From: Candidatus Latescibacterota bacterium
GTDB taxonomy: Bacteria > Latescibacterota > UBA2968
DNA: 64,000 nucleotides
Direction: 5' to 3'
NCBI GenBank assembly: GCA_965205975.1
Contig: OZ242195.1
Location: 2,784,001 to 2,848,000, forward strand
Part shown: one piece after another, positions 2 through 40,387 of the stretch
Layout of the letters: each line of letters opens with the position of its first letter
Numbering within the stretch: position 1 is the first letter of the stretch
The notes under the pieces: model-generated
What the model saw: the letters and a program-made list of their open reading frames with translations, nothing else
Databases searched by the model: none
What the model was told of the DNA's origin: nothing
Translations under genes and position numbers: made by a program

Positions 2-271
2 ACCTGGAGTCTCGACGACATCAAAAAAGAGTGGGTGGAGGAAATTGAAGCAGATAATAAATCGACCTGGGCGGAAATAACATCAGCAGGGCATATTTCT
101 GGCGAAAGCACTCAAGCATATTTGCAACTGTATTACGCGGCCAACGATAAGAAGACGCCAAAGTGGGCAAGAGGCGTGATATATAGCGCACTTGTTCATA
201 AATGGGGAGTGCCCCAAGTAATACCTTCAAAACAGGAGGTTTCAGATGTGCGGAAATATAGATCGCAATGA
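2..271 (+). CDS. 5'-truncated ORF ending in a YkvA/DUF1232-like fragment
   Basis: Frame open from window edge. YLQLYYAANDKKTPKWARGVIYSAL resembles the YkvA N-terminal segment, but the downstream PID motif is absent. Confidence 0.35.
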   Translation, partial: TWSLDDIKKEWVEEIEADNKSTWAEITSAGHISGESTQAYLQLYYAANDKKTPKWARGVIYSALVHKWGVPQVIPSKQEVSDVRKYRSQ

Positions 272-824
272 ATTGGCTTGCCGCCTCATTCAATCTGTGC
301 GAGATGCGTTCGAGAAGGAAAATATCAGCGACATGGGGTTTGGGGATATGACTCGTAGCCTATTCTCTAAATTGGATTGTCTGGGGAAGGAGCTTTGCGC
401 TGACGTTCGACATGGACCGAAAGGACAAGAGGAAAAGAATCTGAATTGGGAATTTCTCTACGACGTGTGCTTTTTTAAACCTCGCGATAAGCGTGAGGAT
501 GGCTACTTCACCCCTAAAACCCCACTGAATCAGGCCCTTATCGTTCTGGAATGCGAGTGGAACAGGGGAAATAAACAAAAAGACATACTGTACGATTTTT
601 CTAAGCTACTCATAGCCAGAGCAGAACTGCGGTGTCTCGTTTTCTATACGACGATCAAATGTAAAGATTTTGTTTGCATATTGGAACGCGTAAAGAAGTT
701 GATAGACGCCTTTGAACAAGGCGACGTGAAAGACCGCTATCTCATATGTGGGATTGGGTGTCGGAGCCTTCGGTTTGCTCTGGTGGATGGCAAGGGTAAA
801 GTACTGTGTAGGAAGAATTATTGA
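246..824 (+). CDS. Hypothetical protein, possible PD-(D/E)XK-like nuclease fold; paralog of 59218-59790
   Basis: AGGAGG RBS. Motifs NWEFLYDVCF, LECEW and DILYDFSKLL are shared with the second copy. Confidence 0.7.
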   Translation: MCGNIDRNELACRLIQSVRDAFEKENISDMGFGDMTRSLFSKLDCLGKELCADVRHGPKGQEEKNLNWEFLYDVCFFKPRDKREDGYFTPKTPLNQALIVLECEWNRGNKQKDILYDFSKLLIARAELRCLVFYTTIKCKDFVCILERVKKLIDAFEQGDVKDRYLICGIGCRSLRFALVDGKGKVLCRKNY

Positions 825-5416: not shown

Positions 5417-6172
5417 ATGATCAAAACCGTCAACCTCGAGAAAGTCTATACCACCGAAGAAGTGGAAACCACTGCCCTGAACAATGTCAACATAGACGTT
5501 GAAGAAGGCGAATTTGTCGCCGTTATGGGACCATCGGGCTGCGGCAAATCCACACTCTTGAATGTGATCGGCCTGCTGGACAATCCGAGCGGCGGGGAAT
5601 ACTATCTGAACAGTGAAGAAGTATCCAAACACACCGAACGGCAAAGAGCCAATACCCGCAAATCAAACATCGGCTTTGTGTTTCAAAGCTTCAATCTCAT
5701 CGACGAACTGACTGTAGCCGAAAACGTGGAACTGCCCCTGTTATATCTGGGCTTACCAGCCAGCGAGCGCAAACAGCGCTTGGATGAATCGCTCGAATAC
5801 ATGGGCATCAAACACCGAGAAAAGCATTTCCCGCAGCAATTATCCGGCGGTCAGCAGCAGCGCGTGGCCGTGGCGAGAGCCGTCATAGCAAACCCCAACA
5901 TCATCCTGGCAGACGAGCCAACGGGTAATCTCGACTCGGCAAACGGCAACGAGGTCATGGACCTGTTGACCGAACTAAACAAAAACGGCACCACAATCGT
6001 CATGGTGACGCACAACTCCCACGACGCGGGATACGCGCATCGCATCATCCACCTGTTCGACGGTCATGTCGCGACAGAGAATATTAAAGAACCGCGCGAT
6101 TATCAACGCCACAAAATCCAAGTACAAGGAAAGAGAGAAATGGTAGGTGTGGAGGATGGGATTGGGATGTAA
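5417..6172 (+). CDS. ABC transporter ATP-binding protein (LolD/MacB type)
   Basis: GPSGCGKST, LSGGQQQRV, ADEPTGNLD, VTH. Confidence 0.95.
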   Translation: MIKTVNLEKVYTTEEVETTALNNVNIDVEEGEFVAVMGPSGCGKSTLLNVIGLLDNPSGGEYYLNSEEVSKHTERQRANTRKSNIGFVFQSFNLIDELTVAENVELPLLYLGLPASERKQRLDESLEYMGIKHREKHFPQQLSGGQQQRVAVARAVIANPNIILADEPTGNLDSANGNEVMDLLTELNKNGTTIVMVTHNSHDAGYAHRIIHLFDGHVATENIKEPRDYQRHKIQVQGKREMVGVEDGIGM

Positions 6173-6195: not shown

Positions 6196-7503
6196 TCACG
6201 ATGATGGTGTGGATGTTTCGAAGGAGATTGATCGATCAAATATGCCAGCAGTTTTGAGTGCTGATGTCAATAGTCCAATGTAGTTTTCTTCGACCCAGTC
6301 GGCCACCAATTGATCTGGGGCATCGAAGACTACAGTTGTCTTTCCTACCCCTGAGATGAAAAGCGGCTCAAACCAGGTCTCAAAAGACTGGACCTGTATC
6401 CTCTCACCTATATTTTCACTCACCTCTTCCCATAAGCTCGAGTATGGGGATTCTGTGCGGCGTTTTTCCCGCTCAGGACATACAGCAGTACTTGGGCCGA
6501 AGGAAACCGCTGGCACAGTTGTACGCCGCTCAGCAACGGATAGCGGGATCACATTGCTCGCACTATCGGCCTCTGGATCCGTTGCGTGGTCGCCTGATAG
6601 ATCTCGCTTAAAATACTGCGTTGGGATCGATGCATCGTTTTCCAGGAGAAAGCGGATATAACCGCCCGGGTTCTTCACACCTTGCCCTTTGGCTCGCACA
6701 TAAGCGATGGCTGCACGGCAACGAGGCGCGGGATATGTGTGACCCAGATGGTGTGCATTTGTCTCATCAATACCAGCTTCCATCAGAGCCTGCACCCCGG
6801 ATAAAGAATCACTACGGGGCAAGCTCTGAGGAAATAATTGAGTAGCTCGCGCTGCGGGATCCCCGTCTTTCTCAGCACCGGTCGGCCGCGCGGGATGGCA
6901 CTCGTTCGAACCGGCGTCGGGTTCCGGAGGACCCGTAAAACCGTCAACAGAATAGAGCGAAACAACAACAGGATCCGGCGTTGATTCTACATCCGCTTTT
7001 GTACCTTGTACCATGTTTTTTGTTGTTATAGAATCCTGTAAACAATATTCCTTTATAACATGGTGGCCGTTTGCAGATTTCTGCAAGTTTGTAGATTTTT
7101 GCAATTCGCCATTTGCAGATTTTTGCAATTTACTATCAGCATTTGAATCGCTACTGCAGGTGCAGTTTTTTTCTTCCTCATTCAATAGCTGCGATCGCAG
7201 TTCATCAGGCAAAAGGGAAAGCAGGGCATATCGCGCCTGATCGACGACGTGGATGCTGCTCGATTCACTCGCTTTTCGTCCCTTGCGCGACAATGTGATA
7301 TAGCCTCGCCGTTTCAGTTCGGCGACCTGGTGGTTGATGGCCGAGACGGACAGACCGCGCCATTTGGCCAGGGTTTCGCGACGTGCAAAACAACCTCTTG
7401 GCCCGCGGTCGAGCTTACAAATCAAAGTAAATGTGCGGAGGGCGCCGTCGGATAGGTCGGCATCTGTGAAAGGATTAAGTGAGGCGGGAGAGGGACTACG
7501 CAT
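6196..7503 (-). CDS. Replication initiator-like protein: N-terminal HTH (HTH_36-like), C-terminal DnaA N-terminal-like domain
   Basis: DLSDGALRTF...RETLAKWRGLSVSAINHQVAELKRRGYI; C-terminal LWEEVSENIGERIQVQSFETWF...APDQLVADWVEENY. Confidence 0.75.
   Translation of the reverse strand: MRSPSPASLNPFTDADLSDGALRTFTLICKLDRGPRGCFARRETLAKWRGLSVSAINHQVAELKRRGYITLSRKGRKASESSSIHVVDQARYALLSLLPDELRSQLLNEEEKNCTCSSDSNADSKLQKSANGELQKSTNLQKSANGHHVIKEYCLQDSITTKNMVQGTKADVESTPDPVVVSLYSVDGFTGPPEPDAGSNECHPARPTGAEKDGDPAARATQLFPQSLPRSDSLSGVQALMEAGIDETNAHHLGHTYPAPRCRAAIAYVRAKGQGVKNPGGYIRFLLENDASIPTQYFKRDLSGDHATDPEADSASNVIPLSVAERRTTVPAVSFGPSTAVCPEREKRRTESPYSSLWEEVSENIGERIQVQSFETWFEPLFISGVGKTTVVFDAPDQLVADWVEENYIGLLTSALKTAGIFDRSISFETSTPSS
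7070..7128. repeat. Three 17-bp quasi-palindromic iteron-like repeats inside the initiator gene
   Basis: TTTGCAGATTTCTGCAA (7070), TTTGTAGATTTTTGCAA (7088), TTTGCAGATTTTTGCAA (7112), next to an AT-rich tract at ~7015-7060. Confidence 0.7.
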
Positions 7504-7533: not shown

Positions 7534-7902
7534 TCAGGACTGGTCGAGGATCGCATTTACCGTGTCGTTGAACTCGGCAACTTCAAATGGTTTTCGGATA
7601 ACTGCATCAAAGTGTGGGGTGGCTGGGTGTTCCGTTGAACTTCGGGGTTCGTTGGTCGATGAGACGAGGGCAATAACAGGTAGATCGGGATGATATATTC
7701 TGATTGCCCTGGTCAAACCATAGCCGTCCAGATCGGGGAACTCCAACGCGGTCAGCACCAGGTCAGGTTCTTGGTGATTGAGCACATCGAGTGCCCTGCA
7801 AACATCTGGGGCGAGTACCGGGCAATGTCCTGCATCTCTAAGGGTGTCTCGAGCCAAGTCCCGGATATCTGGATCGTCATCAACTACGAGTATATAAGCC
7901 AT
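7534..7902 (-). CDS. Stand-alone receiver-domain protein, atypical (phosphoacceptor Asp replaced by Ala)
   Basis: ILVVDDD, PDLVLTALEFPDLDG, KPF; ATG overlaps the upstream stop (TAATG). Confidence 0.8.
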   Translation of the reverse strand: MAYILVVDDDPDIRDLARDTLRDAGHCPVLAPDVCRALDVLNHQEPDLVLTALEFPDLDGYGLTRAIRIYHPDLPVIALVSSTNEPRSSTEHPATPHFDAVIRKPFEVAEFNDTVNAILDQS

Positions 7903-8660
7903 TATTGATTCTTCCCGTTTGAACGCGCATCGCGTGTTATGATGGTCACATCGACCAGGGCACCGGGACGGACATATTTTCCCGCATTCAAAAAAAGACC
8001 CGTTACTTTGCACGTCCCGCTGTCTGGATCAATAACAGGACTGATCCCGATAACGCGCCCGGGCAACGCGCGCTTTCCACCGGCGGTCGGCACGGCAGAC
8101 AGCGGCATATTCTTATGGATCGCGTTCAGCATGTCCTCGGGCACAAGCAGATGCACCTCAAGGTCCAGATAGTCGATCACCCGCGCGACCGCGGTGTAGG
8201 CCAGTATCCAGTCGCCTACCTTTACATTGACCTCGACCACCATTCCGTCCTGGGGCGCGATGATTGCGGTTCTGTCCAGTTCCATACGCGCGGTGACCCA
8301 GTTGCAGTGCGCAACCTCGGCATCGAAGCGAACATTTTCAAGCTGCTGGTCACTGATCAGCTTCTTATCGTGCAACACTTTCCATCGCGCTTGCAGGGTC
8401 TGGGCCTTCTTCAGTGCGATTCGGGCCGCAGTTTCCTTCACCAGCAGATCTCGGCGGGTTAAGACCATGAGGGTATCCCCTTGGGTCACCCGGTCTCCCA
8501 CCTCGAAGTTGACCTGCTGCATCCGTGCGTTCATCCCGGCATAGACGGTCGCCGATCGCGCAGGTACTAAAGGTGTCCTCAGCATCAGTTCTTCTGCGCT
8601 GGCCCTTGTGGCAATGAGCATGAGGAACAGACCGCACAGAAACATCGCGTTGTATATCAT
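7902..8660 (-). CDS. RND/HlyD-type periplasmic adaptor (membrane fusion protein)
   Basis: Signal peptide; lipoyl half-motifs VGDRVTQGDTL and IIAPQDGMV; ISPVIDPDSGT. Confidence 0.85.
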   Translation of the reverse strand: MIYNAMFLCGLFLMLIATRASAEELMLRTPLVPARSATVYAGMNARMQQVNFEVGDRVTQGDTLMVLTRRDLLVKETAARIALKKAQTLQARWKVLHDKKLISDQQLENVRFDAEVAHCNWVTARMELDRTAIIAPQDGMVVEVNVKVGDWILAYTAVARVIDYLDLEVHLLVPEDMLNAIHKNMPLSAVPTAGGKRALPGRVIGISPVIDPDSGTCKVTGLFLNAGKYVRPGALVDVTIITRDARSNGKNQ

Positions 8661-9850
8661 AGTTGATCTCCTGTCAGACGAATTCGTAACATACCCCTGA
8701 ACCGCACGTTTTTGCGTTTCAGGGCCTCGATCTCTTTCTGCTTTTCCGCCAGTTCTTTCTCAATTTCCCTCCGTTTCAGGTAATGAACGGGTGGACGAGC
8801 CATTTTTAAAGCCTCTATTTTCGAATAAATCCCTTGCTCTGCCCTTGATAACTCTTTTAATCGCTCTTTGAGGCCTTTAAAAACGGGCTGAAACCGCGAA
8901 ATCTCCTCTTTTTGGGCAAATTTGAATTCATAAGCCCGGGTGGTGATCGTAATAGCACTGCTCTGGAAGTCTTCTTCCCCAACTTCAAAAGAAGCATCTG
9001 CCTCGATCAGCCCAGACACAAAACTGTTTTCCGGGATCCGTTCCACCAGCTCCTGATAGGTCTCGCCTTTCAACCGGAGCGCCTGTATTCTCACGGGCCG
9101 ATCAGTTTCCTCCACGCGCACCTTATCCGGCAAAATGGCGCCGTGTTCTCCGCACGTCAGAACCCGTCCATCGAAAAAGATCCAGAACCAGGCGGGTTTG
9201 GCATCGAGGATCAGGGCTTTTCCACTTACCTTCTCCCGCGTGTGTCGCCATTGTCCTTCAAAATTCAAATAGGTCTCTGTATTGGCTCTCCGATAATCTG
9301 AGTATGCGGCCGAAGGCGTCGCCATCAGGTACCTGAATGATCGCCAGATACCGCCCATAGTCGATATGGGCATGAACGCCAGGAGCAGTATTAGAATCAC
9401 GGCCAATACAGTACCCTCCCCCATGAGGGATCCGGTTTTGACCCTGTACCTCGCACTGCCGGGAAAAACGCAAACCGCAGGATGGGGATAAAACAGGGGC
9501 ACGCCGCTCTTGGTCGCACAATCGGCGATCAGGTGGCTCATATAGCCCAGGAGCAGAGCCGCATAACACGCGCTTTGATAGGCGAGCAAGGGCAGAGTGA
9601 CAACCGATAGAGCGAGCATACAGAGCAGCGAATGCGTAATCGTGCGGTGCCCCCATCGCCGCTCGATCGGGATGGAAGCAAAGGGCACCATCCGGCCAAT
9701 AGAACTTTTCGGCGAATCCACGTCCGGAAGCAGGCTCCCTATGATCGCGCATGCGACCGCGGGAAGATTGCGGTGAAAGGACATCGAAAAGAGCGAAAAG
9801 GAGCTCGCCACCGTGAGCAGCCCAAATGCAATGTGTGTAGGTGCAGTCAT
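8657..9850 (-). CDS. YdjM-like membrane metal-dependent hydrolase with long C-terminal extension and coiled coil
   Basis: THIAFG, GSLLPDVD, GHRTITHS, YMSHLIADCATKSGVPL. Confidence 0.85.
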   Translation of the reverse strand: MTAPTHIAFGLLTVASSFSLFSMSFHRNLPAVACAIIGSLLPDVDSPKSSIGRMVPFASIPIERRWGHRTITHSLLCMLALSVVTLPLLAYQSACYAALLLGYMSHLIADCATKSGVPLFYPHPAVCVFPGSARYRVKTGSLMGEGTVLAVILILLLAFMPISTMGGIWRSFRYLMATPSAAYSDYRRANTETYLNFEGQWRHTREKVSGKALILDAKPAWFWIFFDGRVLTCGEHGAILPDKVRVEETDRPVRIQALRLKGETYQELVERIPENSFVSGLIEADASFEVGEEDFQSSAITITTRAYEFKFAQKEEISRFQPVFKGLKERLKELSRAEQGIYSKIEALKMARPPVHYLKRREIEKELAEKQKEIEALKRKNVRFRGMLRIRLTGDQL

Positions 9851-11523
9851 CGTTTGAACCTGTACATGAAGAATCGAATGCCTACCAGAAGCGCGCTGCC
9901 AATGCCGGCCAGCACATAACCCTCCATACTTCCGATACCGCGCATGAAGAACCGCGCCGCGACCACGAATAGTAGAATCAGCACCACGGCAAACGTGAGA
10001 TCGATCTGCGCTCGCGCGCCGGTGTGGGATACATCCCTGACCGCGGATCGGGTTACCGCCGGCTCTTTGCGAAGCCGCTCCATGATCTCAATGATGGCGC
10101 GCGGATTGCCAGCACTCTGTTGTAATACGCGGGTCTCGGTCATGGGATAGTCTTCTATATGGGCGCCAGCGGCACACTGCCGGATCAACTTCTTGGCGTC
10201 CGCGGTCGAGAGATGCTCGATTTCCACGCGGTCGAATTTCCAGAAGTGTTTTTCGTAAGGCCTCCGTACTTCTGGCAGAGCAGCGATAATGGTGAACTTG
10301 CGGTTGAGTTTGTCGATCAGCCGCCCGACGGAGCTCGTCATATCGGATAGGTCATCCACGATTAACACGAACTCGTCTTTCTCCACTGAGCCGAGTACCA
10401 TATCTGTCCAGCCCTGGATGGTCGTGCGGGCGTGTTGCTTTTTGATGGTTTCAAAGGGAATGGATGCCCCGGGCGCGATATTGGGAACTGAGTGATCTGT
10501 TTCAATAGCATCACCTCCTTCGGTTGTGTGTGATTGGTTGTTGTCTTGATCTGCCCCAACATCAGCAATCAGAGTCTCCCCCTTCATCTCCGCTTGCTGT
10601 TGCCGTGCCCGGGGCCTCTCCCCTTCCTCTTTGTCCGGACCATCCGGACATAGCCTTCCTATTTTGTGCAGCTCCTCTGCAATATTTATCAGGGCCTCTT
10701 TCGCCGGTGAAAGCGTCTTCACCCTGAGCACATTTTCAGCCTCGAGCAGCGCGAGCAAATGACTTTTGCCCACTCCGATCGGGCCGAGCACCAGGGTATC
10801 AATGCGCTTGCTCAAATTGTCTTTGAGCTGGCGCAATTCCTCATCGCGTCCCACTGTCTGCAGTACCCCGATATGCAAATGCTTTCTCGGCTGCGCGAAG
10901 AATCTGTAATCGCGGTTCTTCTGGCGCGACCACCACCGCGACAACCGCGACCTGCGGTCGATGCGGTCAACAGAATGCCGCTTTTGTTCGGCACTCACAG
11001 AAATGTAGATGGACGACGTCTCGATGGACGCATGCCCCATCAGGTCTTTGATGCGCTCGACCGGCACATTTCGATCTGCCAGGTCCGTGCCGAAGGTGTG
11101 CCTGAGCATGTGCGGATGGACGTGGCGGATCCCCGCGCGCTGCGCGTAGGTCTTCATAGCCGCCCACACGGTCTTGCGGCTGAGACGCTGCCCGTTGCGG
11201 AGATTGCAGAAGACATAAGGAGAATCCGAAAAATGCCGGGACTCCAGCCACTCTCGGAGCACGTCCTGAACCTCGAGGTTCATCGGGACAACCCGCTCTT
11301 TGCCGCGCTTGCCCGTGAAGCGAAGACTCGGTGTGCCCGTTGACCAGTGGATATTGTCAACCGTGAGTGAACACGCTTCGGATACGCGCAGACCACACCG
11401 CGAGAGCACGGCGATCAGTGCACGGTCGCGCGGGTTCATGCGTACGGATTGGAGTGCTTCAAGCTCGTCTTGCGCGAGCGCTTTGGGGAGTTTCTGTATG
11501 GATGATCGTGATGTCATAAGCAA
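9847..11523 (-). CDS. Tyrosine recombinase catalytic domain fused to a P-loop ATPase and two C-terminal TM helices
   Basis: GLRVSE, GKRGK, HPHMLRH, LMGH...SIY; then VGRDEEL, GPIGVGKS, LIVDD, GNPR; two hydrophobic C-terminal segments. Confidence 0.85.
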   Translation of the reverse strand: MLMTSRSSIQKLPKALAQDELEALQSVRMNPRDRALIAVLSRCGLRVSEACSLTVDNIHWSTGTPSLRFTGKRGKERVVPMNLEVQDVLREWLESRHFSDSPYVFCNLRNGQRLSRKTVWAAMKTYAQRAGIRHVHPHMLRHTFGTDLADRNVPVERIKDLMGHASIETSSIYISVSAEQKRHSVDRIDRRSRLSRWWSRQKNRDYRFFAQPRKHLHIGVLQTVGRDEELRQLKDNLSKRIDTLVLGPIGVGKSHLLALLEAENVLRVKTLSPAKEALINIAEELHKIGRLCPDGPDKEEGERPRARQQQAEMKGETLIADVGADQDNNQSHTTEGGDAIETDHSVPNIAPGASIPFETIKKQHARTTIQGWTDMVLGSVEKDEFVLIVDDLSDMTSSVGRLIDKLNRKFTIIAALPEVRRPYEKHFWKFDRVEIEHLSTADAKKLIRQCAAGAHIEDYPMTETRVLQQSAGNPRAIIEIMERLRKEPAVTRSAVRDVSHTGARAQIDLTFAVVLILLFVVAARFFMRGIGSMEGYVLAGIGSALLVGIRFFMYRFKR

Positions 11524-11572
11524 CTCTGGGGGTTAATGGATTAACACATACTTTCTACGGTATTGGGGACGT

Positions 11573-11600
11573 ACCTGACATAATTCGTATTATGTCTATA
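11573..11600. other. dif-like tyrosine-recombinase site (11-6-11)
   Basis: ACCTGACATAA-TTCGTA-TTATGTCTATA; inner CATAA/TTATG geometry as in E. coli dif; ~50 bp upstream of the recombinase fusion. Confidence 0.65.
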
Positions 11601-11637
11601 TCTTTTTCTGCCTGAAATCCCGATAAACCGGGTATCT

Positions 11638-12276
11638 TCACGGCCCTTGTATCCCCAGGCGGATGAGGATCAAAGCCACCGTCAGCGCAATGCCGTTGAC
11701 ACCTGCGTGAATCGCCGCGGTCGTCCAATACGCGCGCTTGCGGCCAAACTGACGCATGTGCAGAAATACAACCGCCAGGAAGAAGCCAGCACCAACGGTC
11801 GCAACAAACCCGTACACCCCGGCGTGCAGATGAAAGACGCCAAAGAGCACGGTCGAAAACCAGACCGCAACAACGGGCCTGTGTGTCACCTTCATGGCAA
11901 GCCAGATCGGGAACCACTGGTTCATCAACGTCTCGATAAGCGGTGCCAAGAAGATCGCCGCGATGAATGTTATCCAAAACCCGTTGTCGGCAATCATCGC
12001 CCTCGGGTCAATGGCTTTAGCAGCGGGATCATCGGCAATCGAGTAAAACGGCATGGCCTCGAGCATGAATCCCAGTGCCATATCTACGAGCGTCGCATAG
12101 ACCGCGAAAATGGCAATCATCGCTGGCGCAGAGAGACTGAGGACGCGCTGAAAGTGCTCTCGAATCACATTATCTCGGGATCCGAAGACATCGAGGACGT
12201 CGCGTGTAGAGTGGGATTCTGGCGGGACTGTACGGGATGGTACTGCTGGACGGGTTGCGAGTGACTGGTGAACCAT
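11638..12276 (-). CDS. CPBP/Abi (CAAX-type) intramembrane protease
   Basis: APLIETLMNQ, FGVFH, AIHAGVN; multiple TM helices. Confidence 0.8.
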   Translation of the reverse strand: MVHQSLATRPAVPSRTVPPESHSTRDVLDVFGSRDNVIREHFQRVLSLSAPAMIAIFAVYATLVDMALGFMLEAMPFYSIADDPAAKAIDPRAMIADNGFWITFIAAIFLAPLIETLMNQWFPIWLAMKVTHRPVVAVWFSTVLFGVFHLHAGVYGFVATVGAGFFLAVVFLHMRQFGRKRAYWTTAAIHAGVNGIALTVALILIRLGIQGP

Positions 12277-12336: not shown

Positions 12337-12353
12337 TGCAAAAAGCGTGCCAA
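12337..12353 (-). promoter_or_regulatory. Sigma54 promoter for the CPBP gene
   Basis: Minus strand reads TTGGCACGCTTTTTGCA. Confidence 0.85.
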
Positions 12354-12430: not shown

Positions 12431-12488
12431 TGTGTCAAATGAAACAGTTGGTGTTTCAAATGAAACAGTAAGTGTTTCAAATGAAACA
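12431..12488. promoter_or_regulatory. Three palindromic activator sites, 21-bp period
   Basis: TGTGTCAAATGAAACA (12431), TGTTTCAAATGAAACA (12452 and 12473). Confidence 0.75.
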
Positions 12489-16079: not shown

Positions 16080-16859
16080 CTATTTAGAGGCTTCCGCCTG
16101 CCAAATCGGATACCGTATATCTGCCCGCTGCATCTCTCGTTGTAACCACTGATTAAACAGATGTTTGCGGATTTCCTTTTTAATCCTCTCGTCCAGCGTT
16201 GCTGGATAGAGTTGCTGTACCAGGTACAGCGCAAAGCCTTTTGATACTTTTTCTGGTCTCAAAATTTCACTCGGTGAAGCAGCAAAAACACGCGCAGCAA
16301 TCCCCTTTGGCAACTGCTTGCGCCGAACACGACCCAAAAAGCCACTACCTGATCGCGTATGTGCATCTTGAGAAAACCGACGCGCCATCGCGTAAAAGTC
16401 CGCACCATCTTCTCGTATCTGCAAATCAACCTCGTCAATCACACCCTTATCCGTGTGAAAAATCCAGCAAATCTCCGCTTCGTCAAATTCCAGTGTGTGC
16501 TGTGCAAAATAGGATTCGATCTGTCCTTTGGCAATCTTCTCAGACAGCAAATACTCCAACCGCCTCACCTCGGCATCTTCTGTCACATCCTGAAGTGTAA
16601 TACCTCGCTTTGCAAGATAGGCCTCTGTATCTTCCACCCGTTCCAGGCGATGTTGATACCGCCAGTCATCTACCCTGCGCTGAATATCTTCCTGTGCTGC
16701 ACAAACACCCTCGCGCCGGGCGAGTTCCCGGATCAATTCCCTGCGCGCAAACCCATCAAAGAAACGCAGATTATCAGCAACACCCATCTGCCGCACGATA
16801 TGGCGCACTGATACCTCGGTACCATTGACCCAAATCAGTGTCGCATCATCTACCATCAC
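16080..16859 (-). CDS. PpiC/parvulin-like peptidylprolyl isomerase associated with the peptide exporter
   Basis: ADFYAMARRFSQD...GSGFLGRV rotamase motif; overlaps the HlyD stop. Confidence 0.8.
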   Translation of the reverse strand: MMVDDATLIWVNGTEVSVRHIVRQMGVADNLRFFDGFARRELIRELARREGVCAAQEDIQRRVDDWRYQHRLERVEDTEAYLAKRGITLQDVTEDAEVRRLEYLLSEKIAKGQIESYFAQHTLEFDEAEICWIFHTDKGVIDEVDLQIREDGADFYAMARRFSQDAHTRSGSGFLGRVRRKQLPKGIAARVFAASPSEILRPEKVSKGFALYLVQQLYPATLDERIKKEIRKHLFNQWLQREMQRADIRYPIWQAEASK

Positions 16860-18238
16860 AATGCCCCCTCTTGCACATCGTACTTCGCCGACTCGTAAAG
16901 CTGTCGCAAGGGAGAAAGCAACATCAGCAAGATTGATTGGCGATCTGTCATCATCTCAGCCGTGCCCTTCATACCAAACATCAGAGGTTTATCATATCCT
17001 TTCACACGCATCGTATTTTCTTCTAACTCAACAACGCACTTAAATATCGGACCAATACGTTCATCAATCACCGCATCTGGCGAGATGGATGTAAGCCACC
17101 CGCGTTTGATGCCAAAATCCTGAAAAGCATACGCATCGTATTTCAGCTTGACCAATTGCCCGGGCTTGAGCAAGCCCACATCTTTATTCAACACCATCAC
17201 TTCTGCAACCATCGGCGCTGAGGCCGGTGCCAGTGCAACCAAAGGTTGCCCCTTACTGATCACCTGTCCCATCGCATTCACCATCACCTGTGTTACAATC
17301 CCCGATTCAGGTGCCAGAATCAAATCTGACTCAGCTTCCAGGGTGCGATCAATGCGTTTGCGCGCCTGTTCCAATCGCAATTGTGCAGTCTCATAAGCGT
17401 GTTGCATCTGCGACGCCTCCCGCTCGTGAGCAATGCGCGCCTCCAAAATTTGACGCTTGAGATCCTGCACAGCCATTTCATTCTTGTATATCTCTGACAT
17501 ACGCGAGGGAAGCGCGGACAGAGCACTCAAATACTGCACGCGCGCGCGATTCATATCTGCCCGGCTGATCAATTCGCGCTCAAACAGCGTCTTCTGCTGC
17601 AAAAACTCCCCTTTCAAGTGATCAATCTCAGCCTGACGAAACCCAATCTGCGCTTGCAACCCCACGTCAGAGGTTTTGGTTTTCGATCCTACAACACCGG
17701 CCACATCGCTTTGATAATCTTCCAGCGCATCCCGATGTGCCTCCATAAACCGCTGCAAAACAGAAAGACGTTGTTCCAATGCCCCTATCGTCTCTCGATT
17801 CAACCTCGCCCTTTGTGGCAACACCGTCTTGAAATCGTACTCTGCCTTTTGAAAAGCCATTTCAACCTGCTCCCATTCCCGCAACTCTCCCCAGGTCTCC
17901 CAGGATTTGAGCTTGAACAATACCCGCCCTTTCTCGACATGATCCCCTTCTTTCACGCCAATCAACTCGATCTCACCGCCTCGCTGTGCCTGCATTGTCT
18001 TCACCTGTCCGAGGGGCACAAGCCGAAAAGGTGCTGATGCCACCACATCCACCTCGCCCCACCACGCCCAAGTAATGGCAACAATCATAAATAGCAGGAT
18101 AATATAGAGCAATGCACGACCCCAAAAGGGTCGCAAAGACCTCATAAACGCATGCACCTCCTCTGCGGCGTCATCTTGTCCCTGAATTACACCAGGAGAC
18201 ATTGTCTCTGCTGGTGTCTCTAAAAGCGGTTCTGCCAT
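16856..18238 (-). CDS. HlyD-family type I secretion adaptor
   Basis: N-terminal TM helix, VKEGDHVEKG, coiled coil, KDVGLLKPGQLVKLKYDAY. Confidence 0.92.
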   Translation of the reverse strand: MAEPLLETPAETMSPGVIQGQDDAAEEVHAFMRSLRPFWGRALLYIILLFMIVAITWAWWGEVDVVASAPFRLVPLGQVKTMQAQRGGEIELIGVKEGDHVEKGRVLFKLKSWETWGELREWEQVEMAFQKAEYDFKTVLPQRARLNRETIGALEQRLSVLQRFMEAHRDALEDYQSDVAGVVGSKTKTSDVGLQAQIGFRQAEIDHLKGEFLQQKTLFERELISRADMNRARVQYLSALSALPSRMSEIYKNEMAVQDLKRQILEARIAHEREASQMQHAYETAQLRLEQARKRIDRTLEAESDLILAPESGIVTQVMVNAMGQVISKGQPLVALAPASAPMVAEVMVLNKDVGLLKPGQLVKLKYDAYAFQDFGIKRGWLTSISPDAVIDERIGPIFKCVVELEENTMRVKGYDKPLMFGMKGTAEMMTDRQSILLMLLSPLRQLYESAKYDVQEGAL

Positions 18239-18254
18239 TATGAGGCTCCTTAAA

Positions 18255-18278
18255 AGCAATCAGCAGTCAGCTATCAGC
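18255..18278. repeat. Short intergenic heptamer tandem repeat (AGCnnTC)
   Basis: AGCAATC AGCAGTC AGCTATC AGC. Confidence 0.5.
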
Positions 18279-18336
18279 CCGCCCAACCACACCACCCTAA
18301 AACTACACCACCTTACTCACCCCAGTCTCCAGCCCC

Positions 18337-21300
18337 TCATACTACTTGCAACTGCTGACTGCACATGTGATAATACAAACCCTGCTGCACCATCAACTCA
18401 TCGTGCGTACCCATCTCCACAATATGACCCTTATCTAAGACCACAATCGCATCTGCATCGCGCACCGTACTCAACCGATGCGCGATAATCAACGCCGTGC
18501 GATCATCCAAAAACAGATCTAAATTCGCCTGTATCGCCTGTTCTGAATCTGTATCCAACGCATTGGTCGCTTCATCAAAAATCAAAATCTTGGGATCATT
18601 ATACAGCGCCCGTGCAATCGCGATCCGTTGCCGTTGTCCACCCGATAATCCCACACCCTGCTCACCCACCTTTGTCTCATAGCCCAAAGGCATATCGCTT
18701 ACGAAATCGTGCACACACGATAGCTTTGCCACTTCCAAAATGCGATCCATATCCGCATCTGTCTGACCAATAGCGATATTTTCTGCAATCGTGCCAGAAA
18801 ACAAAAACGGCTCCTGCATCACCATACCCACCTGCCGCCGCAGCCAATGGGGATCCAGATCCCGCATATCCATTCCATCCAGCGTCACACGCCCTTCTGA
18901 CGGATCAAACAAACGGGGTACCAGCTTGACCAACGTGGTTTTACCCGCGCCACTGCGTCCCACAATTGCAACTTTCTGACTCGGTTCAAGAATCAAGTCG
19001 ATGTTATTCAACACATAAGGCTCATCAGAACCGACACCGTATCTAAAAAACACCTCATCAAAAACCACGCGCCCTTCCAAATGCTTTAAGATCAAACCCT
19101 GACCCTGTTGCCGCGCATCTTCCATCTGCGTGTCATACACATCATTTAACCGATCTAACGCTATACGCGCTTCCTGCACCTGTGGCCATATCCCGATCAA
19201 TCCCATAATTGGGCCCATCACATTGCCAATCAGCGCATTAAACGCCATCAACTGTCCCACCGACAGGTTCCCTTCAATCACCAATGAAGCGCCATACCAC
19301 AAAATCACCGTACTGCTCAACAAATTGATCACGCTTCCGATCCCCCCAAACAACATCTGCATTTTTAACCGCTGAAAGCCAATCTGAATCTCCTTTGTGA
19401 ACTTACCTTCCCAATGCCACCGCGTCGTGTGCTCAACTGCCTCGGCTTTGACCACATCAATGCCATGCAGCGAATCAATCAAGACCGATGATTGTTCGGC
19501 ACGCGCCAGAAAAGCGCGCTGACTGAAAGACTTCAAAATGGGCGTGTAAATCAACGTAAGACCCACAGAGAGCGGCACAAAAACCAGCATAACCAGCGTC
19601 AGTTCCGCATTGTAATAAAACATCAGACCCAGATAGACAAAGAGCATGATAAAATCCAGAACCGCAGAAACCGTCGTACCCGTCAACAAACGCTGAATCG
19701 TTGCATTCTCCCGAAACCGCGTGGTCAAATCGCCCGTGCGCCTGAGCGCAAAAAACTGCATGGACAGCGCCAATAAATGCCGATAAAAACGCGACAACAT
19801 CGCAATGCTCAACCGCGCACTCACATACCCGATTAAATAGACGCGCAACGTCGATGTACCCATCTGGAACAACGCGACGACCACCATACCCACCAGCATC
19901 AAATTCAACAAATCCTCGTCGTGATGCACTAAGACCTGATCGACAATCGTCTGCATAAAAATGGGCGATGCCAGACCAAACAAACTGAGCACTAAAGACG
20001 CCAGCAACACTTCAATCAAAATGCCTGTATAGGGCTTTATCAGAGGGAAAAACCGCTTAAAAGAAGACTGAGAGGGTTCATTCTCTGCCACCTGGTCCGT
20101 GTATTCCAACAACAGCGCCATATTTGTCCAGCCCTTCTCAAACTCTGCTCGCGACAGCTTGCGAATGCCCACGCTGGGGTCCGCTATCTTCACTTCTTTT
20201 TTATTCATCTGATACAAGACCACAAAATGATTGCCTTCCCAGTGTAGAATAGCTGGCAATTCTGTTCGCATCAGAGCTTCATAACCCGTACGCACGCCGC
20301 GCGTGACAAAACCTATGGTTTCCGCAGCCTCGGCCAATGCCGCCATCGATGTGCCATACCGCGACACATTGGACATATCGCGCAACCTGTTTAATCCAAT
20401 CGGCATCTTGTAATACTTACAAATCATGCCCAAACACGCTGCACCACAATCTGATTGATCGTGTTGCTTCAAAAATGGGAAATGCAACAACGTGGGCACT
20501 TGTGGTTTTGCACCGTCTATTCTGATATTAACCACATTGGATGCTGTATGAGACTCTGTATCTTTTTGGGTAATAGAACGCACAACAGGTGGTTCAGACA
20601 CAGAGCGCAATTCCCCCCTTGATCCCTCTTTTCCACGCGATATACGCCCTCTCTCCAGTGCTTCGTCAAATCCCGGCATCATAGCTTTTAACTTATTAAA
20701 ATCGCTTTTATCTATATAAAAGAGCACACTATCACGCCGACTGCGAATCACCCTCTTATCACCTGACAAATTCTCATCACCAAAATAATCACCTGGCCGT
20801 AAAATTACCGTATCCCCACTTTCCAACACAGCCTCCAACTGACCGCTGCCAAGCAAATAAAACCGCTGCCCGAATTGCCCCTGGTCAACAATGGTCACGC
20901 CCTCCTCAACCGCATCGCGCTTCAACCGCGCGAACAACACCCGCATCGCTTCGTCTGGAACATCTCCTTTCAAAAAACGCGTAAAATCCCTATATGCAAT
21001 ACAGGAGACCTGTTCTTCGAGGTAGGCTTTCACGTCAGAACTTTTTCTCATAGCCTTAAAAAACTCGTCCTTCGGCACCCGCAACACATCCGCATCCTCA
21101 ACTGCCCGCACCGTTGCCCGATGCCCTTGCCTATTCAACAATGCCCCTTCGCCAAAATGATCGCCCGCATACAAATAGCCCACAGTTGTTGAATTGCCAT
21201 TCTCATCCTGCTTAATCACCCGCAACCGTCCAGACTCCACAATGTAAAACGCCTCACCCGCTTGCTCTTGTTGAAAAACAACACTTCCAAAGGGAAAACG

Positions 21301-21351
21301 AACAGATTGCGACCGAACTGAGTTTTTGACGAAAAAGTGCGAAAGATTCAT
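18337..21351 (-). CDS. Peptidase-containing ABC transporter (two cNMP-binding domains, C39 peptidase, TMD, NBD)
   Basis: FYIVESGRL...GDHFGEGAL and FYLLGSGQL...GDYFGDE; QHDQSDCGAACL, HFVVLY, IADP; GRSGAGKT, LSGGQRQR, DEAT. Confidence 0.93.
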   Translation of the reverse strand: MNLSHFFVKNSVRSQSVRFPFGSVVFQQEQAGEAFYIVESGRLRVIKQDENGNSTTVGYLYAGDHFGEGALLNRQGHRATVRAVEDADVLRVPKDEFFKAMRKSSDVKAYLEEQVSCIAYRDFTRFLKGDVPDEAMRVLFARLKRDAVEEGVTIVDQGQFGQRFYLLGSGQLEAVLESGDTVILRPGDYFGDENLSGDKRVIRSRRDSVLFYIDKSDFNKLKAMMPGFDEALERGRISRGKEGSRGELRSVSEPPVVRSITQKDTESHTASNVVNIRIDGAKPQVPTLLHFPFLKQHDQSDCGAACLGMICKYYKMPIGLNRLRDMSNVSRYGTSMAALAEAAETIGFVTRGVRTGYEALMRTELPAILHWEGNHFVVLYQMNKKEVKIADPSVGIRKLSRAEFEKGWTNMALLLEYTDQVAENEPSQSSFKRFFPLIKPYTGILIEVLLASLVLSLFGLASPIFMQTIVDQVLVHHDEDLLNLMLVGMVVVALFQMGTSTLRVYLIGYVSARLSIAMLSRFYRHLLALSMQFFALRRTGDLTTRFRENATIQRLLTGTTVSAVLDFIMLFVYLGLMFYYNAELTLVMLVFVPLSVGLTLIYTPILKSFSQRAFLARAEQSSVLIDSLHGIDVVKAEAVEHTTRWHWEGKFTKEIQIGFQRLKMQMLFGGIGSVINLLSSTVILWYGASLVIEGNLSVGQLMAFNALIGNVMGPIMGLIGIWPQVQEARIALDRLNDVYDTQMEDARQQGQGLILKHLEGRVVFDEVFFRYGVGSDEPYVLNNIDLILEPSQKVAIVGRSGAGKTTLVKLVPRLFDPSEGRVTLDGMDMRDLDPHWLRRQVGMVMQEPFLFSGTIAENIAIGQTDADMDRILEVAKLSCVHDFVSDMPLGYETKVGEQGVGLSGGQRQRIAIARALYNDPKILIFDEATNALDTDSEQAIQANLDLFLDDRTALIIAHRLSTVRDADAIVVLDKGHIVEMGTHDELMVQQGLYYHMCSQQLQVV

Positions 21352-21354
21352 TTT

Positions 21355-22242
21355 TTAGTCCATTGTATGGATGGGCACATATCCATCTCTATTATTGCCT
21401 GCCAGAGTTCCTTCGGGTTCAACTCCCGCCTCAAGGTGATCTGTTTCTTCGCGCTTCGCCACCTGATAAAACCACCTCAACCCAATCACGGCTAATAGTA
21501 CGGCACACACATCTACCCACCACGGCAGAAAGATCAAAGCCTCTGGATTTTCCGCAAAGCCAAGTATTTCCGACCGTGCCAATATAACGGCCAAAAAATT
21601 GTTCAACGCGTGTCCCAAAAGACAGGGCAACAAAGACCCCGTCTGAATGATCCACCAGGCGAATACAAGTCCCAATATCAAAGCCACGGGAAATTGCCAA
21701 GGGCTCAGGTGATATATAGCAAACAAAATTGCCGACCAAATAGCAGCCTGATACTTTGACCAATACGCCAACAAACCACCCAAAATAATACCTCTAAAAA
21801 ACACCTCTTCTGTGAAGGGTGCTTGAATCACCGCTACATAAAAAGCGAGTAAATAAGAGGACTCTTTACCAACTAACTCGCGAGACGCATTCTGCAAAAT
21901 CTCGGGCATTGGAATCACATACAATACCCCTTTGCCTAATTCCAGAGAGACAATAAACAACCCGGGAATAGATATCACAAGTGGAAGTAGTAATTGCCAT
22001 GAAATGGCTTTTATGGGCATAATATCAGCCCACGACGACCATGTTCGATCGGTTCGACGCAAAACATAGTTTACGACCAAAATAAAACTCGCCAAGGTCA
22101 AGAGCCAGATCACATAAGGACTTTCATGGAATGGCTGGTCAATAATCACTCCTATTATCGCAATCGGTACCATCAAACCTGCGCTAATCAGGAACAACAA
22201 TACCAGCAGCCAAATCGATTGCTTCAGATTGGGATACGTCAT
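21355..22242 (-). CDS. CPBP/Abi intramembrane metalloprotease (possible immunity or processing)
   Basis: APFTEEVFFRG, FAIYH, GHALNN. Confidence 0.9.
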   Translation of the reverse strand: MTYPNLKQSIWLLVLLFLISAGLMVPIAIIGVIIDQPFHESPYVIWLLTLASFILVVNYVLRRTDRTWSSWADIMPIKAISWQLLLPLVISIPGLFIVSLELGKGVLYVIPMPEILQNASRELVGKESSYLLAFYVAVIQAPFTEEVFFRGIILGGLLAYWSKYQAAIWSAILFAIYHLSPWQFPVALILGLVFAWWIIQTGSLLPCLLGHALNNFLAVILARSEILGFAENPEALIFLPWWVDVCAVLLAVIGLRWFYQVAKREETDHLEAGVEPEGTLAGNNRDGYVPIHTMD

Positions 22243-29350: not shown

Positions 29351-30781
29351 CTATGATGCCACTTCCAGATCATATCGCCGCTGCAACAAAGACGCATCCG
29401 TCTCTGCAATCTCCATACATATCTCCATCGCCAGTTCATAGCGATAGCGCGTCTGTTCACAAGCAACAGGATTGGGATACATCGGATCACCCGTCGTCGT
29501 CCGCGCCTCCCAAAGACACCCGCCACCACACAAATTGCGCGCCCAGCACGTCTTGCACTCAGGCCGATTATTGACATTGAACTGCGCGTCAAAATGCTGC
29601 TGTTTTTCGCGATCAATACCCGCGAACACATCACCCATCTTAAACTCGGGCGCATCGGCCAAACTCGAACAAAAATAAATCGACCCATCCGCTGCAATCG
29701 CCAAATACTGCTTACCTCCCAGACACCCGTGACAGGATTTTTGGCGCGTCAAAAGTTTTTGAATCCTCGGATCAAACTCTTCACACTCTTCACCATTTAG
29801 AATAGCTTTGAGCGCACGTCGGCTCCGCCTGTAAATTTGCTGCTTCAAAACAGGTATGTGTTCTTCCCCAATAGCATAAGGCGCATCCGGTGAAACAACA
29901 GCCGAGCTAACAAGTGCGTTTTCAGTACCCAGAGAACGCAACGCATCGGCAATCTGATCCTCATCCATATCATACGCTGTCATAACAGCCTGCAGGTACA
30001 CGCGCTCAGGCACCTCATCAGTCAGTTTCTCCACATTCTTTGCCACAACATCATAAGTGCCAGAACCATTGTGAAACTTGCGAATGCGATCCTGTGTCTT
30101 ACGCCCCCCATCCAGGCTGACCTTAATCTGAAACTTTTCATCAACCAAAAACTGCTTCATCTCTTCGGTCAACAGCGTGCCATTGGTCACAATGCCAAAA
30201 CCAACCTGCACACCCAACCGCGCGCCCAGGGATTTGGCAAACGGGACAAGCTCCTGCATCAATGGAAAATTCAGGAGTGGCTCCCCGCCAAAAAAATCAA
30301 TCTGGCACCGTCCGAACACCTGGGCCTCAGTAACAATCCAGCGTATCGCCTGCTCTGCAACGTCTGGTTGCATCAGCATCGCCTTACCGCCGTAATCTCC
30401 ACCGTGGGCAAAGCAATAAGCACATTGGATATTGCACGAATGCGAAACGTGCAACGACACCTGCAAACGATCTGTCTGCGAAACCCCACAGGCAGCCACC
30501 CCTTCTGTTGTCGGCACATGGGATACCACAGGTAGTGCACCATCCGAAATCAAACCCACCTGAGCCAATTCCTCAATAGCCTCGACAATCTCCTCTGCCT
30601 CGTATTGATCGGCTAACTTCTGAACAACTTGTGAAGCCGACAACCCCTCACAACACTCTAAAACCGACAGGAAAAGAGTATCCAATTGAAAAAACAGACC
30701 CGTCTCTACCTGATAGACAATTGGCTGTTTTTGTTCTTCAGTTTGAAAAAGATGCATGTCGCATTTCTGAATGGATAGCAT
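29351..30781 (-). CDS. Radical SAM/SPASM peptide maturase with N-terminal RRE (CteB/PapB-like architecture)
   Basis: CNIQCAYC, FFGGEPLLN, SLDG; SPASM GC...YFC...CKTCWARNLCGGGC-x18-C; PqqD-like N-terminus. Confidence 0.92.
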   Translation of the reverse strand: MLSIQKCDMHLFQTEEQKQPIVYQVETGLFFQLDTLFLSVLECCEGLSASQVVQKLADQYEAEEIVEAIEELAQVGLISDGALPVVSHVPTTEGVAACGVSQTDRLQVSLHVSHSCNIQCAYCFAHGGDYGGKAMLMQPDVAEQAIRWIVTEAQVFGRCQIDFFGGEPLLNFPLMQELVPFAKSLGARLGVQVGFGIVTNGTLLTEEMKQFLVDEKFQIKVSLDGGRKTQDRIRKFHNGSGTYDVVAKNVEKLTDEVPERVYLQAVMTAYDMDEDQIADALRSLGTENALVSSAVVSPDAPYAIGEEHIPVLKQQIYRRSRRALKAILNGEECEEFDPRIQKLLTRQKSCHGCLGGKQYLAIAADGSIYFCSSLADAPEFKMGDVFAGIDREKQQHFDAQFNVNNRPECKTCWARNLCGGGCLWEARTTTGDPMYPNPVACEQTRYRYELAMEICMEIAETDASLLQRRYDLEVAS

Positions 30782-30807
30782 ACGAGGTACTCCTCAGAAC
30801 AAAGATG

Positions 30808-30987
30808 TCACTCGGCGTGATCAAAATCGTCCCAATCGTCATCGTCATTGGGAAAGGGCAAGGGAGGAACAGCAATAGGAGTCGGAGAACAGCCATATTC
30901 AAAACTATCCGTCGTCTCATATGTGTGAATACCTCCCTCTTTATCCATTGTTCCATTAATCAAGGTCAACTTGTGCCGAGTCGTCAT
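30808..30987 (-). CDS. RiPP precursor P1 (ranthipeptide-type leader, single Cys, Pro/Asp-rich core)
   Basis: AAGGAGG RBS; MTTRHKLTLING...EYGCSPTPIAVPPLPFPNDDDDWDDFDHAE; immediately upstream of the rSAM gene. Confidence 0.78.
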   Translation of the reverse strand: MTTRHKLTLINGTMDKEGGIHTYETTDSFEYGCSPTPIAVPPLPFPNDDDDWDDFDHAE

Positions 30988-31045
30988 ATTATCCTCCTTC
31001 AATACAAAAATCTAAATGTCGTCACTGTCTTCGCTCCGTTTATAT

Positions 31046-31062
31046 TGCAAGATGCGTGCCAA
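31046..31062 (-). promoter_or_regulatory. Sigma54 promoter heading the RiPP operon
   Basis: Minus strand reads TTGGCACGCATCTTGCA, ~60 bp upstream of P1. Confidence 0.88.
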
Positions 31063-31077
31063 AAATCGTTTTAGCAC

Positions 31078-31109
31078 AAAAAAAAGCACTTGACGACACT
31101 CAAGTGCTT
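31078..31109 (-). terminator. Intrinsic terminator after the activator gene
   Basis: AAGCACTTGA-6 nt-TCAAGTGCTT followed by a T-run on the minus strand. Confidence 0.65.
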
Positions 31110-31170
31110 GAAAAACAAAGAGATAAAATTTAAAAATTATTTGTATTGTAAATGCGGCATCCAGATATAT

Positions 31171-31269
31171 GTGCATCTAATAGATACACATATAACCGTT
31201 CATTTAGATAAAATATGCATAACTAATTGATTAATATAAAAATAAATTAAAGTGCATCCAAATGATACA
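31171..31269. promoter_or_regulatory. Putative activator binding sites (UAS)
   Basis: GTGCATCTAATAGATACA (31171) and GTGCATCCAAATGATACA (31252) in an AT-rich spacer. Confidence 0.6.
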
Positions 31270-31299
31270 TTTTTGCAAAATGATACACCTGTTCAACAT

Positions 31300-38059: not shown

Positions 38060-38123
38060 ATTATGCACCTTTGTCTTTACATCTCATCCAAAAGCGATTC
38101 TGTTATTTTTTGTTCTTTGGCAT

Positions 38124-40268: not shown

Positions 40269-40280
40269 GTTTCCCCTTTT

Positions 40281-40387
40281 TTGGCGTATAATGATAAATG
40301 AGTAGATTGCAATTATCTGCAATTTACTCGAAAAAACAGGGGTTTGCAATAGCAATTTGGCGTATAAAGATTATTATACGCCAAATT
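40281..40387. other. Recombination/operator site: palindrome with 6-bp spacer plus an extra direct repeat
   Basis: AATTTGGCGTATAA-AGATTA-TTATACGCCAAATT (40354-40387); second TTGGCGTATAA at 40281-40291. Confidence 0.75.

Follow-up and report, generated by a model that had tools for sequence, protein, structure and literature searches.

In a 64,000-nucleotide stretch of contig OZ242195.1 from a Candidatus Latescibacterota bacterium, hereafter the window, one gene joins the catalytic domain of a tyrosine recombinase, without its core-binding (CB) domain, to an AAA+/STAND ATPase and a two-helix membrane anchor. We tentatively read the product, with confidence a little short of even, as the DNA-handling subunit of an undescribed machine for the export of plasmids and islands, in which DNA processing would be coupled to export. 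The architecture, the conserved residues, the fold class, the linkage to neighboring genes and the location on plasmids and islands are established, while the transfer and the enzyme activity are predicted. The gene set occurs on plasmids and islands without known transfer genes, and may be part of an unknown kind of DNA movement between cells.

One reading frame with four conserved parts

The gene encodes 558 amino acids from a TTG start, filling the open reading frame (ORF) 9847-11523 on the minus strand; the database version (P0001) starts at an ATG at 11517 and has 556 amino acids, and all residue numbers refer to the 558-residue form. The initial annotation of the window, made from the sequence alone, reported a recombinase, a P-loop ATPase and a membrane anchor in a single ORF. 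This is borne out by 164 of the 263 proteins that were fetched, which combine a recombinase, a Walker A motif, a Walker B/lid part and transmembrane (TM) segments. The catalytic residues it had listed are all located (R46, K72, H138-x-x-R141, H164 and Y173), and the ATPase part carries GR at 225-226, the Walker A motif GPIGVGKS at 247-254, the Walker B motif LIVDD at 387-391 and GNPR at 472-475. In Pfam, PF00589 spans residues 16-178 (E 1e-40) and AAA_16 matches weakly at 224-407. Because PF00589 already starts at residue 16 there is no space for a CB domain, as had been claimed, and the leaders are equally short in the family, with at most 90 residues before the GLR motif in 163 of 164 full-length homologs (median 39). 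The AlphaFold model (pLDDT 78) shows two ordered domains, with a disordered insert, and ends in a helical hairpin. Two TM helices had been annotated: the first is clear, with a 19-residue hydropathy of up to 2.6, whereas the second is only moderately hydrophobic (up to 1.67), though both are modelled as the hairpin (508-528 and 531-555).

The fusion is a real gene rather than an assembly artefact, because 164 of the 263 fetched proteins are fused, the genome holds a second copy, and an independent 940-nt contig (X5 record 21, another study) covers 10725-11664 without a gap, across the domain junction. Homologs that are always two genes, together with reads showing a stop or indel at the junction, had been named at the outset as what would refute the fusion; the homologs are fused instead, and a frameshift or assembly artefact is already refuted as an explanation. 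Contigs from an RNA run (X20) cover parts of the region and are uninformative on expression.

A word search gave 314 matches, of which some 65 are close to full length (49-100% identity), and another hundred or so 50%-identity clusters, mostly of 480-560 amino acids, came from a profile search. The other fetched proteins lack only a TM match (25), lack the recombinase (25), have only a recombinase match (29) or are otherwise partial (20). In the 164 proteins with the full architecture the Walker A lysine and the N-terminal GR arginine are invariant, the GxP proline is present in 163 and the catalytic tyrosine in 160, and the complete set R-H-R-H-Y is kept by 131, across identities of 20-30%. 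A tree of 58 ATPase sequences unites the fused forms (90/91, not starred) and sets a clade with degenerate catalytic sites apart (100/99); the unfused Latescibacterota copies are secondary losses, since they are nested within the fused clade. A metagenome scan turned up a single true relative in 80 loci, the others being ordinary Xer genes. A phage origin was rejected: the ATPase has no match in 50,697 phage records, in PHROGs or, with two single queries, in viral contigs, and none of 80 viral loci listed with the repeat pattern discussed below encodes either the ATPase or YdjM, its neighboring membrane hydrolase.

Fold and sequence affinities

The presence of R-K-HxxR-H-Y on a DNA_BRE_C fold places the N-terminal part in the tyrosine recombinase superfamily. 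Among the fold matches listed for it XerA (Z 21) and XerH (Z 20) are the best, and MrpR is also present; the top family profiles are XerA (E 3e-44) and XerC (E 6e-40). All scores fall short of the curated cut-offs, which apply to whole proteins (137 of 335 bits for XerC, 134 of 330 for XerD, 152 of 220 for XerA). A profile of the family's own recombinase domain gives 130 bits for the host XerD versus 40 bits for the relaxase TcpM, the only MOB_M member compared.

The ATPase matches Cdc6/Orc1 best (Z 16.5, rmsd 3.0, 214 aligned residues), followed by TnsC (Z 15.7), MuB (Z 15.3) and a plant NLR (Z 15.2), and the 50 matches listed are AAA+/STAND proteins with a helical lid. Fold and motifs, namely GRxxE, Walker A, Walker B and the GxP lid motif, assign it to AAA+/STAND, where AAA+ initiators and STAND proteins score within 1.3 Z of each other. 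No FtsK-HerA RecA-like domain appears in the Pfam matches or in the 50 fold matches listed, in agreement with the initial statement that the ATPase is not FtsK-like.

The NLR resistosome among these matches, the effector-STAND-sensor order of domains, and islands full of restriction and toxin-antitoxin cargo would also fit a role in defence or exclusion, in which a STAND-type switch senses a phage or a mating contact and frees the recombinase as a DNA-damaging effector, YdjM being a lipid or cell-wall hydrolase. We consider this improbable, as PADLOC gave no meaningful match (P-loop level only, E 6e-4 or worse), many plasmids have the ATPase without an effector domain, and the module lies in plasmid backbones beside rep/par genes.

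An envelope module on plasmids

What the initial annotation overlooked is the main context of the gene, which is one subunit of a plasmid and island envelope module with YdjM, an adaptor and a TolC-like partner. The YdjM gene follows the fused gene directly in 17 of 17 related loci, and in the window it overlaps the stop codon of the fused gene. Other families keep the adaptor after YdjM (P0293, P0372; about 30% identity), and in some relatives it is fused to YdjM. The model of the long YdjM has C-terminal beta domains and a coiled-coil hairpin; this C-terminal part has no Foldseek match at E 0.001 or better and no atlas match, and its best Z is 10.9, to a TrmB beta domain; these results do not amount to a new fold.

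The fused gene is found on six plasmid records from Bacteroidota and Spirochaetota: Haliscomenobacter (2), Flavobacterium, Spirosoma, Flammeovirga and Thiospirochaeta. All five annotated ones carry a long YdjM, adjacent in four, and on all five the fusion is the sole PF00589 gene, compared with a separate one on nine of ten unfused plasmids, a comparison that has no size-matched plasmid baseline. The unfused ATPase with YdjM is present on 38 plasmid records, including those of Thermus, cyanobacteria, Nitrosococcus (Gammaproteobacteria), Desulfocapsa, Fusobacteria and Thermococcus pTBMP1, and the module ATPase occurs without a recombinase domain in many lineages. OEP/TolC matches are found in the module of Thermus (E 1e-9), Nostoc (1e-5), Fusobacteria (2e-4) and Flavobacterium (5e-4), and OEP on three of the five fused plasmids, close to the fused gene on one. 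Lipoyl/adaptor-like genes also accompany the module, cyanobacteria add a TrwB/HerA-like ATPase, and a thermonuclease or non-specific endonuclease is annotated on 7 of 16 module plasmid stretches (one being a repeat of pSYSX). Typing called non-mobilizable all 38 of the plasmids retrieved with the ATPase and 57 of the 59 retrieved with YdjM; among ParB-matched controls from similar taxa it did so for 140 of 238. This contrast is inflated by plasmid kinship and was drawn with MOB-suite, which is weak for these taxa.

Complex prediction for the ATPase-TM part and YdjM gave an ipSAE of 0.38, against 0.00 for the best control, with at least 85% of contacts shared between runs and a partner pLDDT of at least 77. 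Of 157 solved pairs no more than 18 scored at 0.60 or below, as did the two mismatches (of 215) that passed, and such passes are mostly wrong unless the contact was likely beforehand. The prediction thus lends weak support to a contact between the ATPase-TM part and YdjM.

Synechocystis pSYSX encodes a tyrosine recombinase of 188 residues, likewise CB-less, at a distance of 2.2 kb from the module (L333:3266-3832), and a second such gene precedes the other module copy; with 107 bits, under the 130 of the host XerD, the 188-residue protein is not supported as a split ortholog. Genes upstream of unfused ATPases were considered as degenerate recombinases and rejected. Neither Pfam nor the PDB offers a match for the gene that precedes the proteobacterial ATPases; by eye this gene resembles half a TolC.

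Proposed mechanism

The simplest history would be that a plasmid Xer-like recombinase, minus its CB domain, was joined to the module ATPase in one broad lineage. The module would span the envelope, with the ATPase and its two TM helices, the long YdjM and the periplasmic adaptor, joined on many diderm plasmids by a TolC-like protein. The hairpin and the ATPase may dock on YdjM at the inner membrane, as the weak complex model suggests, and the catalytic domain would then bind the inverted repeat beside its own gene, to which the conservation of that site points. ATP-dependent oligomerisation could take over the assembly role of the missing CB domain and license cleavage. TnsC and MuB gate transposases, and offer a parallel for such ATP-driven assembly on the repeat. 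The element would be monomerised, excised or nicked at the machine, and the plasmid context suggests that the machine would go on to export its DNA. That the ATPase controls recombination is what we infer. Still more doubtful is a generalization to relaxase-free DNA transfer without a type IV secretion system (T4SS), common to bacteria and archaea, in which an AAA+ ATPase, YdjM, an adaptor and a TolC-like pore form the path and a membrane-tethered recombinase would act on the DNA at the pore once ATP-driven oligomerisation has switched it on.

Besides the inflated contrast in plasmid typing, several observations weigh against the protein being a subunit of an export machine. The recombinase domain is far nearer to XerD than to TcpM (hhalign probability 58% for the latter), and the ATPase lies outside the FtsK/VirD4 class of DNA pumps. 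The set R-H-R-H-Y is departed from in 33 of the 164 proteins, in some by truncation, a clade of fused proteins has lost catalytic residues (F-x-R-I-Y type), and copies in the same genus drop the recombinase domain by clean deletion; cleavage must be dispensable there, because of both the dead clade and the deletions. The window operon has no TolC-like gene, no OEP/TolC-like gene was found on two of the five fused plasmids, and beside the Bacteroidota fused copies no gene is annotated as an adaptor. No such repeat was found ahead of the gene on the Bacteroidota plasmids, and the similar palindrome in Flavobacterium, directly behind the stop codon, could be a terminator. Finally, the window island also carries a full-length integrase.

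The inverted repeat and alternative roles

The initial annotation had proposed a recombination assay on 11573-11600. The inverted repeat within it (11577-11596) is genuine and beyond chance, with one match in the window versus 0.01 expected, and it has 11-bp arms, a 6-bp spacer and a dif-like core. A similar site lies upstream of the gene in G152 and G150, which belong to another family, and across the two families the distance is 50-150 bp. The pattern matched in 4 of 21 genomes, with one control match, and in G152 it occurs nowhere else in the genome; two further G150/G152 copies carry another palindrome at this position. The repeat is a good candidate for a cognate site of binding or recombination. 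A frequent match, TAGACAAAAA..TTTTGGCAG, was dropped since it falls in a coding region, and a LexA box was rejected since the repeat is unlike the motifs upstream of lexA and recA.

The flanks of the repeat are mixed among the genus copies, with the switch 10-15 bp outside the repeat and not in the spacer. Compared with the flanks, the 6-bp spacer itself (window 11584-11589 versus L151-L154, L156 and L157) is found either way round, and the inverted form has perfected arms; this would fit the action of a recombinase or template switching in a quasi-palindrome. Tandem arrays of 2-4 units of GACA-N12-TGTC-type sites, with a period of about 32 bp, are found on contig C1 at 1,624,900, 2,173,458 and 2,697,967, at the edges of cargo regions with no recombinase gene nearby; the first is the far edge of the tRNA-Phe island described below.

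A dif-like repeat and Xer proteins as top family matches could suggest that the protein resolves dimers of the host chromosome, with 11573-11600 as dif, but this explanation is refuted. The repeat is 1.3 Mb from the GC-skew maximum (1,482,097), whereas a better dif candidate, found with a dif pattern (12 matches genome-wide), lies about 400 bp from the maximum at 1,482,493; the host also has full-length XerC and XerD genes, and the gene is missing in 5 of 20 genus genomes. The echo of XerD activation by FtsK that had been noted at the outset survives as an analogy only.

A role in plasmid maintenance alone is harder to dismiss but in our judgment unlikely. Here the protein would be a self-contained analogue of Xer/FtsK, a resolvase that separates plasmid dimers at the repeat while held at the membrane, with its ATPase setting the timing. 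The envelope genes would then have a task other than DNA export. The nearest relatives in sequence and fold (XerA, XerC and XerD), the fusion as the only tyrosine recombinase of its plasmids, the dif-like layout of the repeat, its mixed flanks and its presence at island edges all fit. This leaves unaccounted for the adaptor, TolC-like and nuclease partners and the absence of typed relaxases, and neither the exchange of flanks beyond the repeat rather than in the spacer nor the catalytically dead clade is expected from it.

The dead clade, which is well supported in the tree, instead favors a membrane-tethered regulator, in which the recombinase fold binds the repeat as an operator and the operon is controlled by an envelope signal through YdjM and the ATPase. 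The position of the repeat upstream of the gene in two families, its uniqueness in G152 and the 32-bp arrays of similar sites elsewhere in the genome point the same way, and inactive recombinase folds do serve as DNA binders, TnsF being described as one in PMC10293859 and MrpR being comparable. Yet all five catalytic residues persist in 131 of 164 proteins despite their low identity, and the operon already has a predicted sigma-54 promoter with enhancer sites; we think this role rather improbable, and keep to that of a DNA-handling subunit of an export machine.

The operon and its island

The order of the operon is enhancer-like palindromes, sigma-54-like promoter, CAAX protease, inverted repeat, fused gene, YdjM, adaptor, receiver and helix-turn-helix (HTH)-DnaA_N gene (Table 1). 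The CAAX protease is deleted or truncated in most relatives, its leader there being joined to the recombinase or the ATPase, and in other families HTH and IstB/DnaC-like genes occupy the position of the initiator. The promoter-like site follows the sigma-54 consensus, and the palindromes are probable sites for an enhancer-binding protein. No ABC, RND or MFS inner-membrane pump was found in the window operon or in the plasmid modules opened.

Table 1. Features of the fused gene and its operon (window positions unless given as residues, aa)
Feature	Position	Strand	Basis or remark
HTH + DnaA_N protein, phage-O-like replication initiator	6196..7503	minus	Pfam, PHROGs
Stand-alone response-regulator receiver, accessory	7534..8013	minus	full length in only 1 of 17 related loci
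Periplasmic adaptor (membrane-fusion protein)	7902..8660	minus	TIGR01730 over cut-off
Long YdjM-type membrane metal-dependent hydrolase	8657..9850	minus	PF04307, E 8.6e-28; invariant H/D motifs
Fused CB-less tyrosine-recombinase catalytic domain, AAA+/STAND ATPase and two-helix membrane anchor	9847..11523	minus	Pfam, AlphaFold model, homologs
Recombinase catalytic domain	aa 16-186		model and Pfam
AAA+/STAND ATPase	aa ~222-502		disordered insert ~297-352, deleted in relatives
Inverted repeat GACATAA-N6-TTATGTC	11577..11596		~55 bp upstream of fused gene; candidate binding/recombination site
CAAX/Rce1-like membrane protease, first operon gene	11638..12276	minus	
Sigma-54 (-24/-12) promoter-like site TGGCAC-N5-TTGC	12338..12352	minus	58 exact matches genome-wide
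Three TGT-N10-ACA palindromes	12431..12488		21-bp spacing

The relatives are assigned to Latescibacterota, and reads that match were found in sponge metagenomes; the copy in the window sits on an island in a sponge-associated Latescibacterota genus in which the module is eroding. Seven of 20 same-genus genomes have the fusion in one frame, eight the ATPase part only and five neither. The second copy in the same genome (C1:1,573,404-1,575,077, 94% identity) lies at one end of an insertion of about 54 kb at the 3' end of tRNA-Phe. That site is empty (a few hundred bases) in G087, G091 and G085, holds a 12-kb insert without the module in G090 and is rearranged in G082, evidence that concerns the second copy and not the window copy. 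A duplicated tRNA 3' end as attL/attR was not found, the sequence being single-copy in the genome. A third locus (C1 4,478,150-4,478,780) holds a broken YdjM remnant; relatives still have ATPase-YdjM there, next to a sigma-54 response regulator.

The window is rich in cargo, and related islands are rich in restriction and toxin-antitoxin genes. The integrase at 39318-40355 is a full-length tyrosine integrase with a SAM-like domain, truncated copies of which recur in L004/L156 close to the module. Genes of the AAA-ATPase-like/PD-(D/E)XK type (518 amino acids) are repeated in the window, at 36512-38068 and 60094-61650, and are common in related islands too. An ABC ATPase gene at 5417-6172 is 92% identical to a chromosomal paralog only up to 6084 and has a foreign 3' end; it is probably near the island edge. 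The regions 16080-22242 and 29351-36117 hold a Peptidase-C39 ABC exporter with cNMP domains, HlyD, a peptidyl-prolyl isomerase, a CAAX protease, a radical-SAM/SPASM enzyme and a 1605-residue kinase-AAA-sigma54 activator, with a sigma-54 site at 31047-31061, and look like an export cluster for a ribosomally synthesized, post-translationally modified peptide or a glycopeptide.

Comparison with known systems

How plasmids typed as non-mobilizable spread is an open question, and the module marks such plasmids in tractable hosts (the Thermus plasmids of about 20 kb, Synechocystis pSYSX and a 14-kb Flavobacterium plasmid). With a DNA-breaking domain physically joined to the module, DNA transfer or maintenance is directly testable. 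If our reading is true, an ATP-gated, membrane-bound tyrosine recombinase would be a new mode of regulation for this class of enzymes. The initial annotation knew of no characterised counterpart, and we likewise found no description of the system in the literature searched, whose coverage mostly excludes subscription journals and supplements.

The Xer systems (XerC/XerD-FtsK, XerA, XerH and XerS) have the closest catalytic domain and share an 11-6-11 repeat beside the gene and a membrane ATPase tied to the recombinase. However, the fused protein has no CB domain and scores under every Xer cut-off, its ATPase is AAA+/STAND and covalently joined, the gene is mobile and patchy, and the site is far from the terminus. 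FimB/FimE-type invertases act without an N-terminal domain, and these short (about 200 residues) profiles match residues 21-191 (E 1e-14). The match is far under the cut-off, however, no invertible segment was found, and the ATPase and anchor are fused features of our protein. Like HlyBD-TolC, MacAB-TolC and the RND exporters, the module has an adaptor over the TIGR01730 cut-off and TolC-like partners, but it lacks an ABC, RND or MFS pump; its inner-membrane parts are the AAA+ ATPase-hairpin and YdjM, and the TolC-like partner is not universal.

The relaxases of the MOB_M class (TcpM, MpsA and MobK) are a precedent for tyrosine recombinases without a CB domain (PMC8152469; bioRxiv 10.64898/2026.01.13.699239). 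They have a catalytic domain without AB or CB domains (PMC8152469), and their genes lie beside membrane ATPase genes on plasmids. The fused protein differs in its weak similarity to TcpM and its AAA+ fusion, and the fused loci have no T4SS/FtsK-like coupling protein. Its ATPase fold is that of TnsC and MuB, activators of DNA-breaking enzymes, and recombinase folds are used in mobile elements by TnsF/Tsy (PMC10293859); unlike these it has no transposase, zinc fingers or CB domain, and it has a membrane anchor. We set the system apart from known classes because it falls outside what defines Xer, MOB_M, the tripartite pumps and known defence systems: every domain comes from a known family, and what is new is the architecture and the gene set.

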